Source of the DNA: a virus
Lineage: Duplodnaviria; Caudoviricetes
Virus record (IMG/VR): IMGVR_UViG_3300039239_000038
Location: 1-47,058 of that record
Strand: one strand, 5' to 3'
Length of the DNA stretch: 47,058 nt
The translations under genes were made by a program, and so were the position numbers. Positions 377-47,058 of this stretch are shown here, piece by piece. The notes below the pieces were generated by a model. That model worked only from the letters and a program-made list of their open reading frames with translations, made no database searches and was not told the DNA's origin. The first letter of the stretch is position 1. Each line of letters starts with the position of its first letter.

Positions 377-634
377 TCACCACGCGTGAGAAGAGAAGCC
401 CCCGACTCGCCGAGCGGGGGCTTTCTTCATGCGGCGCGGCGACCCTCGCGCGCGGATCCGGCCGCAGAGCAGCGGGTCCAACCGGACGCCTTCCTCCGAC
501 GTTACGGCGTGGATCAGGAGCTGGTAGTACCTGGCCGGCGGGAGTCCGAGCTCGTCGACGATCAGCATCTCCTTGTGCGACGTGTGCCGGGGGTGACGGT
601 TCTCGAAGTCGAACAGCTCTTGGACGGTGGGCAT
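377..634 (-). CDS. DUF3263-like small actinobacterial protein
   Basis: LFDFE...KEMLIVDELGLPPARYYQLL...LDPLL pattern. Confidence 0.7.
   Translation of the reverse strand: MPTVQELFDFENRHPRHTSHKEMLIVDELGLPPARYYQLLIHAVTSEEGVRLDPLLCGRIRARGSPRRMKKAPARRVGGFSSHAW
396..428. terminator. Probable bidirectional intrinsic terminator
   Basis: AAGCCCCCG...CGGGGGCTT stem followed by TCTTC. Confidence 0.55.
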
Positions 635-640
635 GTGGAC

Positions 641-662
641 AGTGTCCGCGGGGGTTCCGACG
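641..662 (-). promoter_or_regulatory. PafBC/RecA-NDp-like promoter (degenerate), leaderless
   Basis: CGTCGG-N10-GACACT-N6-ATG(634). Confidence 0.45.
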
Positions 663-1180: not shown

Positions 1181-1229
1181 GAAACGCCCCTCCCAGCACA
1201 CACAGTGCGGGAGGGGCGGTGATCGTTTC
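1181..1229. terminator. Hairpin / possible terminator
   Basis: CGCCCCTCCC...GGGAGGGGCG inverted repeat. Confidence 0.45.
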
Positions 1230-1247
1230 GGTGGGGGCGTCTACTGT
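1226..1247 (+). promoter_or_regulatory. PafBC/RecA-NDp-like promoter, leaderless
   Basis: TTTCGG-N10-TACTGT-N8-ATG(1256). Confidence 0.5.
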
Positions 1248-1255
1248 TCCGGGTC

Positions 1256-1534
1256 ATGGGTTCGGTGAAGGTCACGGCAGGGAAGCTCGAGGAGACGCTC
1301 GCGAGGGTGCCGCCGGTCACGTTGCCGACGCCGGCGTGGGGCCCGCAACCGATCGGATGGTTCACGGGGACGCGGCCAGTGTGGGTGTGGGTGTCGTGGC
1401 GTGACCGGCCCGCAACACGTGAACCCGGGGTCGCGCGGGGAGCGAACGACCGGGTCGTGATGGTCAGCATCGACGTGGGCGGGGACCACTGGGAACCCGT
1501 CGTCTGGCGCAACGCCGTCACCGTGCGGGGATGA
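1256..1534 (+). CDS. Hypothetical Trp-rich protein
   Basis: 92-aa ORF with promoter upstream and terminator downstream. Confidence 0.65.
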   Translation: MGSVKVTAGKLEETLARVPPVTLPTPAWGPQPIGWFTGTRPVWVWVSWRDRPATREPGVARGANDRVVMVSIDVGGDHWEPVVWRNAVTVRG

Positions 1535-6538: not shown

Positions 6539-7531
6539 TTAGACCGCGCGGGTCCACTCCATGTCCACGAGCACGACCATCCCGTCCGCACCAGAATTCG
6601 ACGCCACCGCCGACGACAACCAGATCTGGAACAAGCCAGCCGAGGTGACTCGCGCCCACCCCCACACCGTCGTAGTCCCGGAGAACACGATCGGACAGAA
6701 ACCGTCCGACCCAGCCGCCGGCCGCCACCCCACCGGAACGTTGCCGACCGTGTACAAGGTCGTCGCCGAGAAGTTCGTCAACGACGTCGTCGTGAACGCG
6801 CCCCGAAGTCCTCCGCGGGTGCCTCGACGGCGGAGCCGCAGCGACTCGTACAACCCGTGGTCTGCGTAGAACGACTCCGCGTACGGCACCGTCCGGGTCT
6901 CCTCGAACGCCCAGATGCCGTTCTCCCGCACCGCGAGGACGTCGAGGTCAAGACGGTACGCAGTCGCACCGTCAGCCGGCGTCCACGCGTCCATCTCTGC
7001 CTGATTCCTCAGCCACACCGTGCCACCCGCCATCGCGGTGAACGGTGCCGTCTGCGTGATCACGACCGTCTGCGTCGTCAGGTCGCCGGACGTGACCACC
7101 GCAGTGGCCAGCTCGAGCGCGCCGGCCGGGATCGAAGGCTTCGACGGGGACGCGTTCGCGACCCCCTGCGTCACCCCGAACAGCGGCGCCGTGCCCGTGT
7201 CACTCGCGAGAGGGAACAGGCACCGCACCCAGATCACGTCGATCCGGGAATTCGATCCCGGCGCCGCGGTCGTCGCGACGGTGGTGATCGCGTCGTTCGC
7301 GACCCACTCCACACCGGCACTGTTCCGCGCGGTCACCGCGACGAACGGCGCGATCTGGTACGTCATGCCCAGGTCGGCGGTGCCGGTGACGATCGGGTCC
7401 GTCGAGAACGGCACCACCCCCACACGGGACACCCCGGCGGCGGAACGGACGGCCATGCCCGCCTGGATGCGACGCCACGCAGCAGCGGACAGTCCAGCGG
7501 GCGCCTCGGTGGGAAGGGAAGGGGTGAGCAT
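6539..7531 (-). CDS. Minor tail protein
   Basis: AAPGSNSRIDVIW...GVANASPSKPSIPAGALELA pattern; position. Confidence 0.75.
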   Translation of the reverse strand: MLTPSLPTEAPAGLSAAAWRRIQAGMAVRSAAGVSRVGVVPFSTDPIVTGTADLGMTYQIAPFVAVTARNSAGVEWVANDAITTVATTAAPGSNSRIDVIWVRCLFPLASDTGTAPLFGVTQGVANASPSKPSIPAGALELATAVVTSGDLTTQTVVITQTAPFTAMAGGTVWLRNQAEMDAWTPADGATAYRLDLDVLAVRENGIWAFEETRTVPYAESFYADHGLYESLRLRRRGTRGGLRGAFTTTSLTNFSATTLYTVGNVPVGWRPAAGSDGFCPIVFSGTTTVWGWARVTSAGLFQIWLSSAVASNSGADGMVVLVDMEWTRAV

Positions 7532-39541: not shown

Positions 39542-40732
39542 TCAGGTGCGTCGAGCCAGGTCGGCGTAGACGCTGGGGTGCACGTCGTACTGCCAGGCAG
39601 CAGCGGCGAGCGGGTCAGTGATCGACGCGGGAACCGTCTCCCCGTACAGGCGCAGAGCACCGTTCCGGTCAGGGCTCCCGTTCGTCATGACGAGCAGGTT
39701 CACCGGCTCGTCGTAGAACTCGGCGGGTAGCGCGTACAGCGCCAGCTCGTGCGGCTCGTTCGCCGGGTCCGGGCACGTCGCGATCGGCGTCGACCCGAGA
39801 TGCTGAACCACTCGCGGCCACCCGATCCGTTCGAGCGCGGCACGCCGCTGCTCCGAGTTGTCGAGCTTCAACGCCCGGTCGATGTGCTCCGGGGTGACGT
39901 CGTCCTCGATCACCCACGCGGGGACACGGATCCCGTGCCACGCGTGCACCGCCCACCCGTCCCGGTACAACAGCGCCGGCCCGTCCTCACGGTGCAAGCG
40001 CCGCGACGTCGTCGAGAACGCGAAACGACTCGACTCCAGCTCCTGGTTCACCTCGACGGGACGCTCCGTGCACACGACTACCCCGTCGTACGGGAACCAC
40101 CACCCCGTCGACCGGGAGATCGTCGCCCACAGCCCGAGCTGTTCCGAACGCTTCGGGTCGTAAGTCACCAGCGACTGCTGCTCCGGGAACAGGTAGTACG
40201 CGATCCAGTACGCCTCGTGCTGACCCCACCAGGCCTCACGGTTGGCGGCGTCTCGCGCACGACCGAGGAGCGAGTCCCTGAGCGAGTCCCCGAGCGAGAC
40301 CCTGAGCGAGACCCTGAGCGAGTCCCTGAGCGAGTCCCCGAGCGAGACCCTGAGCGAGTCCCCGAGCGAGACCCTGAGCGAGTCCCCGAGCGAGACCCTG
40401 AGCGAGTCCCTGAGCGAGTCCCCGAGCGAGTCCCTGAGCGAGACCCTGAGCGAGACCCTGAGCGAGTCCCCGAGCGAGACCCCGAGCGAGACCGCCGCGG
40501 GAGTGAGCTTTCCGGACAGGATCGCGACTGCCAGCGCACCTGTCGCCGGGGAGTCACACCACACGAACTGTGGTGCGGGTTTTCCGATGATCTCGTACAT
40601 GCGGGTGATCGCCGCCTCCGTTGCCGGACGATCCGACGGCTCCGTGTAGGTGCCGTACCGGTACCACTCCGCGTGATGCGCGCGGAGAGCTTCTTCCTGC
40701 TCGCTGGTCAGCGAGTCGATGCGCGTGCCCAT
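39542..40732 (-). CDS. DUF6745-like protein with tetrapeptide repeat tract
   Basis: WCDSP, GWWFP...ERP...LHREDGPAL..DGW..HAWHG, NSEQRR motifs. Confidence 0.75.
   Translation of the reverse strand: MGTRIDSLTSEQEEALRAHHAEWYRYGTYTEPSDRPATEAAITRMYEIIGKPAPQFVWCDSPATGALAVAILSGKLTPAAVSLGVSLGDSLRVSLRVSLRDSLGDSLRDSLRVSLGDSLRVSLGDSLRVSLGDSLRDSLRVSLRVSLGDSLRDSLLGRARDAANREAWWGQHEAYWIAYYLFPEQQSLVTYDPKRSEQLGLWATISRSTGWWFPYDGVVVCTERPVEVNQELESSRFAFSTTSRRLHREDGPALLYRDGWAVHAWHGIRVPAWVIEDDVTPEHIDRALKLDNSEQRRAALERIGWPRVVQHLGSTPIATCPDPANEPHELALYALPAEFYDEPVNLLVMTNGSPDRNGALRLYGETVPASITDPLAAAAWQYDVHPSVYADLARRT
40268..40493. repeat. 12-bp tandem array, 18 units plus partial
   Basis: GAGCGAG(T/A)CCC(T/C) units encoding (R/G)(D/V)SL. 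Confidence 0.97.
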
Positions 40733-40734
40733 GC

Positions 40735-41235
40735 TCAGATCCCTTCGTGGTTGGGTCGCTCGAGGTGCGACCAGTGCGTGCCACAGCGGATGCCGGACAC
40801 GAGGCTCTGTGAGATGTGGAAGCGGGCCGCGATGGTCCGCTGATGGACGCCACCAGCGAGGAGCTCGAGCACCGAGATGGCGTCTGACTCGGACAACCGG
40901 CTTCGGGGGTGGGCCGCGCCGCGAACGTGTCGTCCGCGCGTGACTCGGTCCGCGGAGTTGTCCGCGTGCGTCCCGACGCGGAGGTGCGCGGGGTTGACGC
41001 AGGGAGGGTTGTCGCACGAGTGCAGGACGATGAGACCGGTCGGGACGGGCGAACCCGTCGCAAGCTCCCACGCGACGTGTGTCGCGACGAGGGTTCGCCC
41101 CTTTGAGCCGCCTTCGTTGATGGCGCCGTAGCCGCGTCCTCGACGAGGGCCTTCCCATTCCCAGCACTCGTCAGGCGCACCGACAGTGAACTTCTCAGCG
41201 AAGCGCTCGGTCAGCGGCCGACGGGCGATGGTCAT
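40735..41235 (-). CDS. HNH homing-type endonuclease with C-terminal HTH
   Basis: CWEWEG...GYG...VLHSCDNPPCVNPAHL...THADN. Confidence 0.88.
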   Translation of the reverse strand: MTIARRPLTERFAEKFTVGAPDECWEWEGPRRGRGYGAINEGGSKGRTLVATHVAWELATGSPVPTGLIVLHSCDNPPCVNPAHLRVGTHADNSADRVTRGRHVRGAAHPRSRLSESDAISVLELLAGGVHQRTIAARFHISQSLVSGIRCGTHWSHLERPNHEGI

Positions 41236-43492: not shown

Positions 43493-43950
43493 GACGCCAC
43501 CGCCTCAGCCGAGTGGATCGCATCGCGCAGAACCTCGGGCAACGCGGCCACAGCCTCACTGGCCAGGTTCTCCCGCGCCCGCTGCAGTTCGCTCTGGTAC
43601 TCATCCCAGTGCGCGGCGAGCACCGTCTCGCGTGCGACCTTGTCTGCTTCGGCGATCAGATTGAAGTTCTGCTCGCCGTCGAGCTCCCGGATCGCCTGCG
43701 CCACGTGACGCTTGCAGACAGGTGCGGTACGAACGGTGATACGAGGCCCGCGGTAGTCGCGCTCCTCGCTCGTCACTTCGATGACGGCGACCGGAACCGA
43801 GCATGCAACGAGACGCTGCTTCAGGGTGTGGGCGCAGGCCAGACCGTCGCCCGGGTACCAGACACGGATCTGGGCAGACACGGGGCGCTTCGACCCGCGC
43901 ACCTCACCAGAAACGGCGAGCGTGAACCATTCTTCGACGTTCGTGCTCAC
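43489..43950 (-). CDS. Hypothetical protein
   Basis: Coupled ORF. Confidence 0.6.
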   Translation of the reverse strand: MSTNVEEWFTLAVSGEVRGSKRPVSAQIRVWYPGDGLACAHTLKQRLVACSVPVAVIEVTSEERDYRGPRITVRTAPVCKRHVAQAIRELDGEQNFNLIAEADKVARETVLAAHWDEYQSELQRARENLASEAVAALPEVLRDAIHSAEAVAS

Positions 43951-44198
43951 GGCCGAACCTCCGCACCGGTGTCACGCGTGACGACCCGGGTGCTCGCTAC
44001 CCATGCGTCGATCTCCGACGCGAGGTAGAGCACCGTCCGCAGGGTGGGCTTGTAGAAGGCGGGACCCTTCCGCTTCTTGCGGAGGTCCTCGAGGATCACA
44101 GTCGTCATGCCCGGCACGCGGGCGCACACCTGGTCAGGTGACAGCCACACGGGATCCGGCGCCGAAGACGCCTTCTTGAGTGGAGTGACGTTCCCCAT
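43947..44198 (-). CDS. Excisionase/AlpA-like HTH protein
   Basis: WLSPDQV...GPAFYK...VLYLASEIDAWV. Confidence 0.8.
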   Translation of the reverse strand: MGNVTPLKKASSAPDPVWLSPDQVCARVPGMTTVILEDLRKKRKGPAFYKPTLRTVLYLASEIDAWVASTRVVTRDTGAEVRP

Positions 44199-44200
44199 GC

Positions 44201-44476
44201 TCAAGCCGCCTCGTCAGGCTTCGGATCCTCGGTCGTGACGAGCACGAACAGGGAATCGAACGAAGCGTGCGGGAACGCAGCGGCGAGCTTCGCGAGGAAC
44301 TCGTTCGACGCGACCGTCTCCCCCTTGCGCACTCTGCGGAGGGTGGAGTCGTCGACGCCGATACGACGCGCGAACTCGGTGTCCGTGGGGATACCGTGCG
44401 CGTCACGGAGCTGGTCCAGTCGACGCGGGTCGACCGTCAGGTGGTGGGCTCTTGCGCCCGTGCTAGTGGCTGGCAT
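44201..44476 (-). CDS. Cro-like XRE HTH protein
   Basis: TEFARRIGVDDSTLRRVRKG; divergent from repressor. Confidence 0.8.
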   Translation of the reverse strand: MPATSTGARAHHLTVDPRRLDQLRDAHGIPTDTEFARRIGVDDSTLRRVRKGETVASNEFLAKLAAAFPHASFDSLFVLVTTEDPKPDEAA

Positions 44477-44621
44477 GCGTGCAACCGTAGGGCATGAATG
44501 GACGTCATGCAACCCTTTTGCACGCGCGCAATTCACGGGCATGGGCGCGCCACAGAGAAACCCCAGGTGTGCGCGCACTTTCTTTGCACGCATGCAACTC
44601 CGACGTGTAGCGTTGGCCAAT
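44471..44621. promoter_or_regulatory. Immunity switch: divergent leaderless promoters with three 14-bp operators
   Basis: Operators TGGCATGCGTGCAA (44471), TTGCACGCGCGCAA (44518), TTGCACGCATGCAA (44584); minus TTGCAT-N17-TACGGT; plus TTGCAC-N18-TAGCGT. Confidence 0.75.
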
Positions 44622-45248
44622 GTGAGCGAGAAGACCTGGGGCGTGTACGTCCAGACGAACAGCAACGGCGAACAGAAGAGCGCGATCGCGGGGAAGCTCC
44701 ACGTCGACCCGTCCACCGTGGGCAGGTGGATCAGCGGGCATACCCAGCCGAAGCCCCTGCAGGTGATCGCGTTCGCGCGCGCCTACGGCCTCTCCCCCAT
44801 CCCAGGACTGATCGCCGCCGGATACCTCACCCCCGAGGACGTCAGCGGCGAAGTCGTCATTGAGTCCTCCCCCACCCTCGACAGCATCGCCACCCACACC
44901 CTCATCGACGAACTCGAACGACGCCTCGAGGTCATGTCGCATTACGCCGGATGGATCCGAGCCATCGCCGCCGGAGGGACAACGCCGGCCCGACTCAGCG
45001 AGCACGTCCTCCGCTACCTGGACCCGACCGCACCGCCGCGGTCCGTGCAGGGCGCGGACTTCGCGGCGGCCCTCTCCCCGCACGTGATCGAAGTGCCCGG
45101 ACCGGACGGAGAACGCACCTTCGGGCTGCCAGACGAACTCACCCGCGCCCGGATGGCCCGCAATGTCGGAGGCCCTTCGCAGACTCAAGAAGTCGCCGCA
45201 GACACCCCCACTCGACACGAGGATGACACCGATGACTACACGCCATGA
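44622..45248 (+). CDS. Immunity repressor (XRE/ImmR-like)
   Basis: AIAGKLHVDPSTVGRWISG HTH; LIAAGYLT motif; no S24 autoprotease domain seen. Confidence 0.85.
   Translation: MSEKTWGVYVQTNSNGEQKSAIAGKLHVDPSTVGRWISGHTQPKPLQVIAFARAYGLSPIPGLIAAGYLTPEDVSGEVVIESSPTLDSIATHTLIDELERRLEVMSHYAGWIRAIAAGGTTPARLSEHVLRYLDPTAPPRSVQGADFAAALSPHVIEVPGPDGERTFGLPDELTRARMARNVGGPSQTQEVAADTPTRHEDDTDDYTP
45164..45185 (+). promoter_or_regulatory. PafBC/RecA-NDp-like DNA-damage promoter inside repressor 3' end
   Basis: TGTCGG-N10-CAGACT, 46 nt upstream of the immA-like ATG. Confidence 0.6.
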
Positions 45249-45705
45249 GCGCGACGTTGCGCATCTCGTCGGCGTCGCGAACGAGCTCGGACTAAAAGTC
45301 GTCGAGCGTCGCGGCCATCACCGAGGCGGGTACCACGACGGCATCCGACAGATCCGGATCAACCCCGGGATGTCCGTCCGCCTGACACGGTCGATCCTGG
45401 CCCACGAGATCGCCCACGCTCTCCACCGCGACGTACCGTCTCCATACGGCCCCGTACGAATGAAACAGGAACGTCGCGCGTGGGAGTGGGCCGCGGTCTA
45501 TCTCATCGACCCCGCCGACTTCGCTGCAGCCGAAGATGCCAGGTGTGGTCACGCGCCGGCCATGGCGTTCGACCTCGGCGTCACCGTCGAGCTCGTCGAT
45601 GCGTTCCGGGGTGCGCTCGAGCGAATCGGTGAACACGTCTACCTGCAGCCGCGGATGGGCGCTGGTGGGTGGACTGAGCGAGTCGAGATCCGAGAGACGG
45701 CCTGA
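45232..45705 (+). CDS. ImmA/IrrE-family metallopeptidase (antirepressor)
   Basis: LAHEIAH (HExxH) ... QERRA; GAGGA RBS; between repressor and integrase. Confidence 0.88.
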   Translation: MTTRHERDVAHLVGVANELGLKVVERRGHHRGGYHDGIRQIRINPGMSVRLTRSILAHEIAHALHRDVPSPYGPVRMKQERRAWEWAAVYLIDPADFAAAEDARCGHAPAMAFDLGVTVELVDAFRGALERIGEHVYLQPRMGAGGWTERVEIRETA

Positions 45706-45707
45706 CC

Positions 45708-46820
45708 ATGGCTGGGTCGATCTCCCCGTACACAACCGCCTCGGGGAAGCGATACCGGGTCCGGTACCGGAAGCCCGACGGTCAGCAGACCGACAAGCGC
45801 GGCTTCAAGACGAAGCGTGAGGCGGAGACGTATCTCGCCGAGGTGACGGTGTCGAAGGCGACGGGCGGCTACCTGGACCCAGCCCTCGGCAAGAAGACCG
45901 TCGCCGTGTTCGGAGAGCAGTGGATGACGGGGCGGCTCGCTCGCCTCAAACCGTCCAGCCGGAACACGATGGAGACGGCCTGGCGTGTGCACGTCGAACC
46001 GAAGTGGGGTGGCCGCGGTGTCGCGAGCATCCGGTCCTCCGAGGTGGAGGACTGGGTGAGCGCCCTCATGACCGCGACGGTCGACCGGAAGGCGCTGGGT
46101 GCGCAGACCGTACGGCGCTGCGTCTTTGTCCTCTCCAGCGTGCTCGCGATCGCCGAGCGGGACGGTGTGATCCGCTCGTCTCCCACCAAGGGCGTGCAGC
46201 TACCGGCGAAGAAGTCGAAGCCGAAGCGGTACCTCACGCACGCGCAGGTCGAGAAGCTCGCCGCCGCGGCCCCCGGACACGAGACGCTCATGCTTCTCCT
46301 GGCGTACGCCGGCCTGAGATGGGGCGAGGTGTCCGCGCTTCGCGTCCGGCACCTCGACATGCTGCGGCGACGAATGCTGATCGAGGAGAACGCCGTCCTC
46401 GTGAAGGGCGTCTACGAGATCGGCACACCGAAGCACGGCGACGCCCGGGAGGTTCCAATCCCGCTGTTCCTCGTGAAGCCGATCGCGAAGCTCTGCGAGG
46501 GCAAGGGGCGAGACGGCTTCGTCTTCTCCAACGGGCCCGTCCCGATGTCGTACCCGCATCGGACGTCTGGCTGGTTCGTGAAGGCTGTCACAGCGTGCCA
46601 GATCGCGGACCCCAACTTCCCGACGATCACGCCCCACGATCTGCGCCACACAGCAGCGTCGCTCGCGATCTCCGCCGGCGCCAACGTCAAGGCAGTGCAG
46701 CGGATGCTCGGGCATGCCTCCGCAGCGATGACACTCGACGTCTACGCTGACCTATTCGACGACGACCTCGAGGCGGTTGCCGTGGCGATGTCCGAGGCGC
46801 GCGCGGCTGCCGTTTCCTGA
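45708..46820 (+). CDS. int: Tyrosine integrase
   Basis: GLRWGE, HDLRH, LGH, catalytic Y (DVY); N-terminal arm-binding domain. Confidence 0.96.
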   Translation: MAGSISPYTTASGKRYRVRYRKPDGQQTDKRGFKTKREAETYLAEVTVSKATGGYLDPALGKKTVAVFGEQWMTGRLARLKPSSRNTMETAWRVHVEPKWGGRGVASIRSSEVEDWVSALMTATVDRKALGAQTVRRCVFVLSSVLAIAERDGVIRSSPTKGVQLPAKKSKPKRYLTHAQVEKLAAAAPGHETLMLLLAYAGLRWGEVSALRVRHLDMLRRRMLIEENAVLVKGVYEIGTPKHGDAREVPIPLFLVKPIAKLCEGKGRDGFVFSNGPVPMSYPHRTSGWFVKAVTACQIADPNFPTITPHDLRHTAASLAISAGANVKAVQRMLGHASAAMTLDVYADLFDDDLEAVAVAMSEARAAAVS

Positions 46821-46822
46821 CG

Positions 46823-46844
46823 GATGTGGGCAGAGCGTGGGCAC
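46823..46844 (+). promoter_or_regulatory. Putative integrase arm-type sites
   Basis: GATGTGGGCAG AGCGTGGGCAC. Confidence 0.65.
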
Positions 46845-46852
46845 CACCACGA

Positions 46853-46898
46853 AAGGCCCCCGGCAGATCACCCGAGAGGGCGACCGGCCGGGGGCCTT
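46853..46898. terminator. Terminator between int and the convergent nrdF 3' copy
   Basis: AAGGCCCCCGGC / GCCGGGGGCCTT 12-bp inverted repeat. Confidence 0.7.
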
Positions 46899-46932
46899 GT
46901 CAGTGCGGTGACTCCACGGGATCTCGCGGGAC

Positions 46933-47058
<126 letters not shown>

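Follow-up and report, generated by a model that had tools for sequence, protein, structure and literature searches.

In the ImmR/ImmA pair of Bacillus subtilis ICEBs1, phage phi105, the Listeria MpaR/CI-like pair and the pneumococcal ImmAR phages, the available texts describe an XRE repressor without an autoprotease domain, followed by an HExxH anti-repressor protease of the PF06114 family. The trigger, in the same texts, acts on the protease, through the RecA-dependent SOS response in phi105 and through RecA, DprA or single-stranded DNA (ssDNA) in the pneumococcal phages. Such pairs are described as autoregulated as one unit. The phage locus analyzed here has the same arrangement of genes, with the difference that a separate promoter read by a host activator would uncouple immA from the repressor gene.

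Two further groups of systems are related in part. Deinococcus IrrE (PprI), known with DdrO, belongs to the same protease family, but it is chromosomal, multi-domain and controlled after translation, and is not a phage switch. Coliphage 186 Tum and N15 AntC are LexA-controlled phage antirepressors. Another example, as described in part of the text of PMC13492144, is GP07. Such systems resemble the present locus in that the repressor is not self-cleaving and the antirepressor gene is plugged into the host damage regulon by transcription. They differ in relying on release from LexA and on binding antirepressors, whereas here an ssDNA-sensing host activator and a protease would serve.

The candidate activator is PafBC, which controls the RecA-NDp promoters of mycobacteria and other Actinobacteria. 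Its activating signal is ssDNA (PMC11804915); once bound to ssDNA, PafBC adapts SigA-RNA polymerase to -26/-10 promoters. The consensus given in the consulted part of PMC8635444 is tGTCgg(N10)tA(N3)T, where lower case marks bases conserved at 50% or less. It has no -35 element, and its GTC triplet is read by PafB residues R46 and R50 (PMC8635444, same part).

The phage is most likely a circular temperate phage genome. The window, that is, the whole stretch of 47,058 nucleotides analyzed, is a complete 47-kb contig with a 126-bp terminal repeat (46933-47058 repeats 1-126). Its best named relatives are Microbacterium proteins (75% for ImmA, 63% for the repressor), from which we infer a Microbacterium-type host. 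At the right end, xis and cro are read leftward, and rep, immA and int rightward toward attP. The features discussed below are:

43947-44204, minus strand: excisionase-like HTH_17 gene, second in the leftward early operon (phrog_66 excisionase, E=1.2e-4; weak HTH_17)
44201-44476, minus strand: Cro-like HTH gene, divergent from the repressor (HTH_3, E=2.2e-6; phrog_3642)
44622-45248, plus strand: XRE/HTH_3 repressor of 208 aa with a low-confidence acidic tail; no autoprotease domain detected
45164-45185, plus strand: PafBC-type motif TGTCGG-N10-CAGACT (-26/-10 elements) in repressor codons 181-188; transcription start predicted near 45192
45219-45223, plus strand: GAGGA, putative ribosome-binding site of immA within the repressor gene, read from the sequence
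45232-45705, plus strand: ImmA/IrrE-family zinc metalloprotease of 157 aa, HEIAH (PF06114, E=2.2e-8; phrog_87)
45708-46820, plus strand: tyrosine integrase, 2 nt past the immA stop (PF00589, E=2.7e-20)
46933-47058 (= 1-126), no strand assigned: 126-bp terminal repeat with the likely attP core; 3' end of nrdF on the minus strand
377-662, minus strand: DUF3263 gene (634-377; PF11662, E=1.3e-11) and degenerate CGTCGG-N10-GACACT (662-641), 6 nt before the ATG
1226-1534, plus strand: unnamed 92-aa open reading frame (1256-1534) and degenerate TTTCGG-N10-TACTGT (1226-1247), 8 nt before the ATG

The repeat at 46933-47058 encodes the last codons of nrdF, and the same stretch ends the ribonucleotide reductase small-chain gene beside the integrase of locus L259. 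Because the likely attP carries the nrdF 3' end, integration would restore the host nrdF. The same nrdF end lies beside the integrase in relatives L259-L267, which have the same repressor family. TGCA/GCATGCA operator-like repeats cluster in the gap between cro and rep (44476-44597) and recur at 233-247, just right of attP, which suggests a second repressor-controlled promoter there. Elsewhere in the early region, the open reading frame at 39542-41167 (minus strand) contains a long tandem S-L-(R/G)-(D/V) tetrapeptide repeat.

The repressor and protease are of the ImmR/ImmA type. A sequence-only reading of this DNA had described a repressor without an autoproteolytic domain, followed by an HExxH ImmA/IrrE protease, and both descriptions hold. 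The Pfam matches of the repressor are to HTH domains only (HTH_3, E=2.5e-6); at E<=0.1, no peptidase family is listed and the C-terminal S24 peptidase domain of the lambda CI type is absent. Its structural model (mean pLDDT 75) has only HTH-type structures among the matches listed, none at E<=0.001 and none with an S24-type fold, and DdrO is among the top HTH matches. Directly downstream, the protease matches PF06114 with an intact HEIAH motif and a downstream Glu. Across a 48-sequence ImmA alignment, E59, H62, Q79 and E80 are invariant and H58 nearly so, and profile matches to IrrE structures are weak (E=0.025-0.035). The immA start overlaps the last 17 nt of the repressor gene.

The motif has the form of a PafBC promoter. 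As the sequence-only reading had it, TGTCGG (45164-45169) and CAGACT (45180-45185) stand 10 nt apart within the last codons of the repressor gene (encoding N-V-G-G-P-S-Q-T), 46 nt upstream of the immA ATG at 45232. The -26 element holds the GTC triplet and the spacer leads to an A(N3)T hexamer; CAGACT is permitted as a -10 element because the first t of the consensus is conserved at 50% or less. Neither a sigma-70-type site nor a canonical -35 was found in 44150-47058, a weak test in high-GC DNA. The site thus shares the invariant GTC, the spacing and the missing -35 with the PafBC regulon. It differs from the known PafBC targets, which are host genes, in belonging to a phage, in lying within coding sequence and in having no T at the first position of the -10.

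Within the window, a scan with the consensus gives four one-mismatch matches against 4.53 expected, which is chance level. Scored with a matrix from 24 host sites, 45164 comes out on top among 94,070 positions, with 17.1 bits against 15.7 for the runner-up; the 24 sites were picked by pattern and include a recA site nearly identical to the window site. The second-ranked site under this matrix (15.7 bits) is TGACGG-N10-TACCGT at 6953-6974 on the minus strand. A LexA box pattern has four one-mismatch matches in the window (3.5 by chance) and none in 44-47 kb. The missing box at the switch speaks against LexA control of immA and agrees with the LexA-independent switch proposed earlier. RNA runs X1-X3 (shares 0.06-0.08) each gave one contig of 205-255 nt.

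The motif is strongly enriched upstream of immA in related loci. We assembled 112 immA loci plus the window; L024, L032, L053 and L065 were dropped, having no HExxH match or too little upstream DNA, and removal of duplicates (72% over 200 nt) reduced the remaining 109 to 73. Single-protein searches of viral contigs returned no loci; alignment-based searches found them. The Microbacterium-type set (n=48) consists of the window, vB_MoxS-R1, genome loci with Microbacterium in the title and viral loci L033-L071, which were grouped by similarity; its ImmA proteins have a median identity of 47%. A relaxed pattern, TGTC-N12-NA-N3-T, was set after a first look at the loci, with the published spacing. 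It occurs in 43 of the 48 loci, 56-136 nt before the immA anchor (125-nt test window); the 48 loci are related, and the 43 matches are not 43 independent events. By comparison, 99 of 5232 background windows (1.9%) contain it, the reverse strand has it in 2/48, and eleven other spacers (7-11 and 13-18) give 0-6 of 48. The enrichment upstream of immA homologues that the sequence-only reading had called for is seen in this set. Among the five loci without the strict motif, CGTCCG stands at the correct spacing in L042, and the other four show no such sequence. In the more distant loci, the pattern is found in 10/25 (shuffle mean 2.4) and missing from 15/25.

The conservation acts on DNA rather than on the encoded peptide. 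When codons were shuffled synonymously with the peptide kept, the average was 1.0 and none of 2000 rounds exceeded 6, against 42 observed sites. GTC is present in all 43 sites. At site positions outside the selecting pattern, the 43 phage sites score above 157 chance matches under the host matrix (p=4e-14). Reading frame is shared by 41 of the 43, and in these the first T of the motif fills the third position of an Asp, Asn, Gly, Ser, Thr, Pro or Arg codon, GTC encodes the Val in 41/41, and the last T closes GAT, ACT or AAT. Among flanking codons the T-ending share is 5-20%, and no immA column exceeds 31%. DNA-level constraint follows from the shuffle result and from the variation of frame and of these seven amino acids.

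These features also bear on whether the tail peptide itself, [N/D]V-x4-[Q/E][D/T], is kept as an ImmA recognition or cleavage site, with the DNA likeness as a by-product. Val182 is invariant in an 18-sequence repressor alignment (18 homologues of the repressor were found, one named Microbacterium), and the single frame of most sites would fit such a reading. The shuffles, at about 1 in 48, speak against it, as do the rare T-ending codons across seven amino acids and the motif copies in other frames and between genes. Residues 183-203, partly encoded by the motif, form a low-confidence coil in the repressor model. In a variant of this explanation, an ATG overlapping the motif (45163, in frame with immA) starts a longer ImmA; we rejected this N-terminal extension, as the reading frame from such an ATG runs on into immA in just 7/29. 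Conservation for protein-level reasons is the most improbable of the alternatives, and we give it next to no weight.

All 43 Microbacterium-type sites lack the first T of the -10 hexamer, so the promoter may be weak; the middle of the hexamer prefers RRM. A T at -12 would create a stop codon in 34 of the 41 in-frame sites. Amber avoidance was rejected as the sole cause and is at most a contributing reason, given that leaderless host genes and DUF3263 genes often have the non-T form too.

The motif also occurs outside this frame and gene context. In L011, L016, L109 and L238 the frame differs, and three of these sites have a full TA -10. L244 has a perfect intergenic copy 6 nt upstream of the protease ATG. 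The L244 protein led to 174 phage records, six of which were inspected. Among these, Xavia, Squirty, Kenna and ODay show a perfect site at leaderless distance, 7-8 nt upstream of the annotated protease start; in Dulem virus 32 the sequence TGTCAG-N10-AATACT stands 6 nt upstream of the start. Sidious would have a perfect leaderless site if the start were moved downstream; in its gene 39 (L270:1180) the annotated GTG lies inside the motif and an ATG follows 24 nt later at leaderless distance, so that the annotation is probably too long. Xavia, Squirty and Kenna (L269, L271 and L272) also share GTAA(T/C)TCCTGGTCAG about 25-35 nt upstream of the -26 element. In Rhodococcus phage Sleepyhead and corynephage phi16, the motif is in the repressor tail. 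Behind the same repressor family, it is kept in front of two other ImmA subtypes in all 7 of the loci listed (of 10), some of them near-duplicates.

The integrase is probably a passenger of the promoter, because the motif is kept although the gene after immA varies and, in vB_MoxS-R1, is encoded on the other strand. Several tyrosine integrase types, an opposite-strand integrase or no detected integrase are found in this position; longer genes after immA in some loci can be read as serine integrases. The constant partner of the motif is thus immA, whatever gene comes next in the loci compared. A promoter that serves integrase supply for excision, with immA transcribed only as the gene in between, would suit the 2-nt gap between immA and int, and a similar integrase adjoins on the same strand in 14 of the 43 motif loci, with other types in many more. 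Against this, the motif persists in vB_MoxS-R1, Squirty, Kenna and ODay, whose int runs the opposite way, and in L244, where none was detected, and in the leaderless cases the predicted transcription start coincides with the immA ATG. We therefore consider integrase supply a very unlikely main function. The earlier proposal that PafBC transcribes both antirepressor and integrase is likely in its first half and is weakened in its second.

Repressor-immA cassettes that carry the motif with no integrase detected nearby occur in L003, L006 and L021 (with duplicates L009, L010 and L014) and in L244. In L003, L006 and L021 the next gene looks like a GNAT acetyltransferase. These integrase-free cassettes are possibly domesticated damage switches.

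The distribution of the motif has limits. It was not found in SamW, Juicebox or Bifidobacterium phages PMBT6 and Bbif-1. In a phylum sample of long-type PF06114 genes, 51 were fetched and 43 scored (7 without an HExxH match and 1 without any match were dropped; profile scores were low, at 5-26 bits). The motif is present in 0/43, 14 of which are in genomes with a PafB-like gene (E<=1e-14), and several of these distant genes are probably not phage genes. Phylum-wide generality is thus rejected, and the motif is limited to short ImmA types.

The two motifs near attP add little. The sequence-only reading had cited two similar motifs there, giving no coordinates, and we took them to be 641-662 (minus strand) and 1226-1247 (plus strand). 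Both exist, but they are degenerate and offer weak support in this genome; the latter changes the G of the GTC triplet read by PafB. Upstream of DUF3263 homologues, TGTCRG-N10-VANNNT was found in 6/30 loci, apparently the phage-like ones. Homologues of the open reading frame at 1256-1534, which has no Pfam or PHROG match, have TGTC-N12-NA-N3-T within 125 nt in 13/30 loci. This 92-aa family (L275-L304) occurs in 32/151 Microbacterium genomes. Several members have a LexA-box-like sequence between -26 and -10, which suggests a damage gene under two controls.

On the host side, Microbacterium genomes have PafBC genes and contain sites of the same form. A tandem WYL pair is present in 5/5 genomes (2-5 WYL matches per genome), and one WYL protein is identified as PafB by its matches to 6SJ9, 9FND and 7P5X. 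The motif precedes recA in 5/5 genomes, with two of these sites matching the window site at 17 of 18 bases. The non-T -10 form followed by a start codon 6-7 nt later was found 97 times in the five genomes against 7 for the reversed pattern, CAGACT once. These host sites were chosen by pattern, as predicted PafBC sites in Microbacterium. Among 22 scanned genes behind the non-T form, five are of RecQ-/Lhr-type helicase, RmuC, Ada/AlkA or DinB-family types, four are DUF222 and one is DUF3263. Seven of the 18 scanned genes behind the TA form are of UvrD, RadA-like, SbcD, RecF-like, RecQ or methyladenine glycosylase types. The remaining genes behind host sites are unrelated or unnamed (e.g., EamA, MFS and RibD). 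Genomes G002 and G003 have many copies of promoter TGTCGGAGGTCCGTGACATGATTCGAACATG, which stand ahead of DUF222 genes in the cases scanned; at the start codon the sequence resembles a LexA half-site.

A real promoter could still be read by another WYL activator or sigma factor, or act as a weak constitutive top-up of unstable ImmA. The several WYL matches per genome allow for other readers, the phage -10 is never T-first and has its RRM middle, unlike TA-type host sites, and genes such as EamA, MFS and RibD are not repair genes. On the other side, GTC is invariant at the exact PafBC spacing, no sigma-70 -35/-10 site was found, and the same form stands before recA and before radA-, recF-, sbcD-, uvrD-, dinB- and alkA-type genes. 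A non-PafBC reader is unlikely, while retaining more weight than the other alternatives. The comparisons support the view that selection maintains the motif at the DNA level, in the form of a PafBC promoter and in a position to transcribe immA. It is, we think, very likely a PafBC-driven immA promoter.

Repressor cleavage by ImmA is inferred from related systems: MpaR, ImmA and IrrE cleave XRE repressors in other phyla, according to the available parts of the literature. Even with PafBC driving the promoter, ImmA might mainly act on another substrate: Cro, a small HTH or DUF3263 protein encoded nearby, or some protein of the host. Xavia, Sidious and Kenna have other genes between repressor and protease, and there the protease is followed by a small HTH or DUF3263 gene; chromosomal cassettes without a detected integrase exist (L003, L006, L021 and L244), and one repressor family pairs with three ImmA subtypes. 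Yet the repressor is directly upstream in nearly all Microbacterium-type loci and has no autoprotease domain, and the XRE-cleaving relatives favor it as the target. A different main substrate is rather improbable, a little more so than a different reader.

We propose that PafBC starts an immA-int transcript after damage, that ImmA cuts the repressor and that the prophage is induced; we put the probability of this whole chain at about 0.7. In the lysogen, rep, immA and int would be read from the repressor promoter, fixing a low ratio of ImmA to repressor. On DNA damage, host PafBC would switch on the internal promoter, with a start near 45192 and a 40-nt leader carrying GAGGA. The short transcript would raise ImmA and Int without raising repressor, the extra ImmA would cut the repressor, and its loss would free cro and xis and lead to induction.

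Independence from RecA is a weaker proposal. The phi105 ImmA is activated RecA-dependently (PMC13492144), cleavage by Listeria MpaR is only partial in the absence of mitomycin (PMC6872733), and the need for RecA varies among pneumococcal ImmAR phages (PMC12637031), in each case as the available part of the text describes. For these reasons we hold full RecA independence to be doubtful, somewhat short of an even chance. A second trigger may operate, given phi105, the differing pneumococcal phages and the PafBC-type site at Microbacterium recA; ssDNA, zinc or RecA filaments could be a second key for ImmA. Equally tentative is the broadest form of the idea, in which PafBC alone would induce a large class of temperate phages infecting Microbacterium, Gordonia, Mycobacterium, Rhodococcus and Corynebacterium. 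ImmA transcription would then make up the entire switch, which would need neither RecA filaments nor LexA, and the acidic tail of the Microbacterium repressors might be kept largely for the promoter and ribosome-binding site of the repressor's own destroyer.

Both parts of the wiring, PafBC promoters and ImmA anti-repressors, are known; we did not find their combination in the open literature searched, which included available text of PMC7617703, PMC10023795, PMC8223512, PMC6789036 and the Xavia preprint. Within that scope the earlier impression that the wiring is undescribed persists. The available main text of the Xavia overexpression preprint makes no mention of the peptidase. Phage vB_MoxS-R1, which carries the motif, is mitomycin-inducible, and the consulted part of its paper names an ImmA gene and mentions no such promoter (PMC9030533).

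The question addressed is how actinobacterial prophages with non-self-cleaving repressors sense damage. The wiring likely ties an anti-repressor gene to the host damage response by transcription, via an activator instead of LexA. Cultured systems that pose the same question are vB_MoxS-R1 in Microbacterium oxydans R1, Xavia and Squirty in M. smegmatis, and Gordonia terrae phages. If the proposal is true, a phage switch would be hooked to a WYL activator instead of RecA/LexA, and the PafBC regulon would extend to prophages. The conserved peptide in many repressor tails would then be explained as a promoter in disguise.
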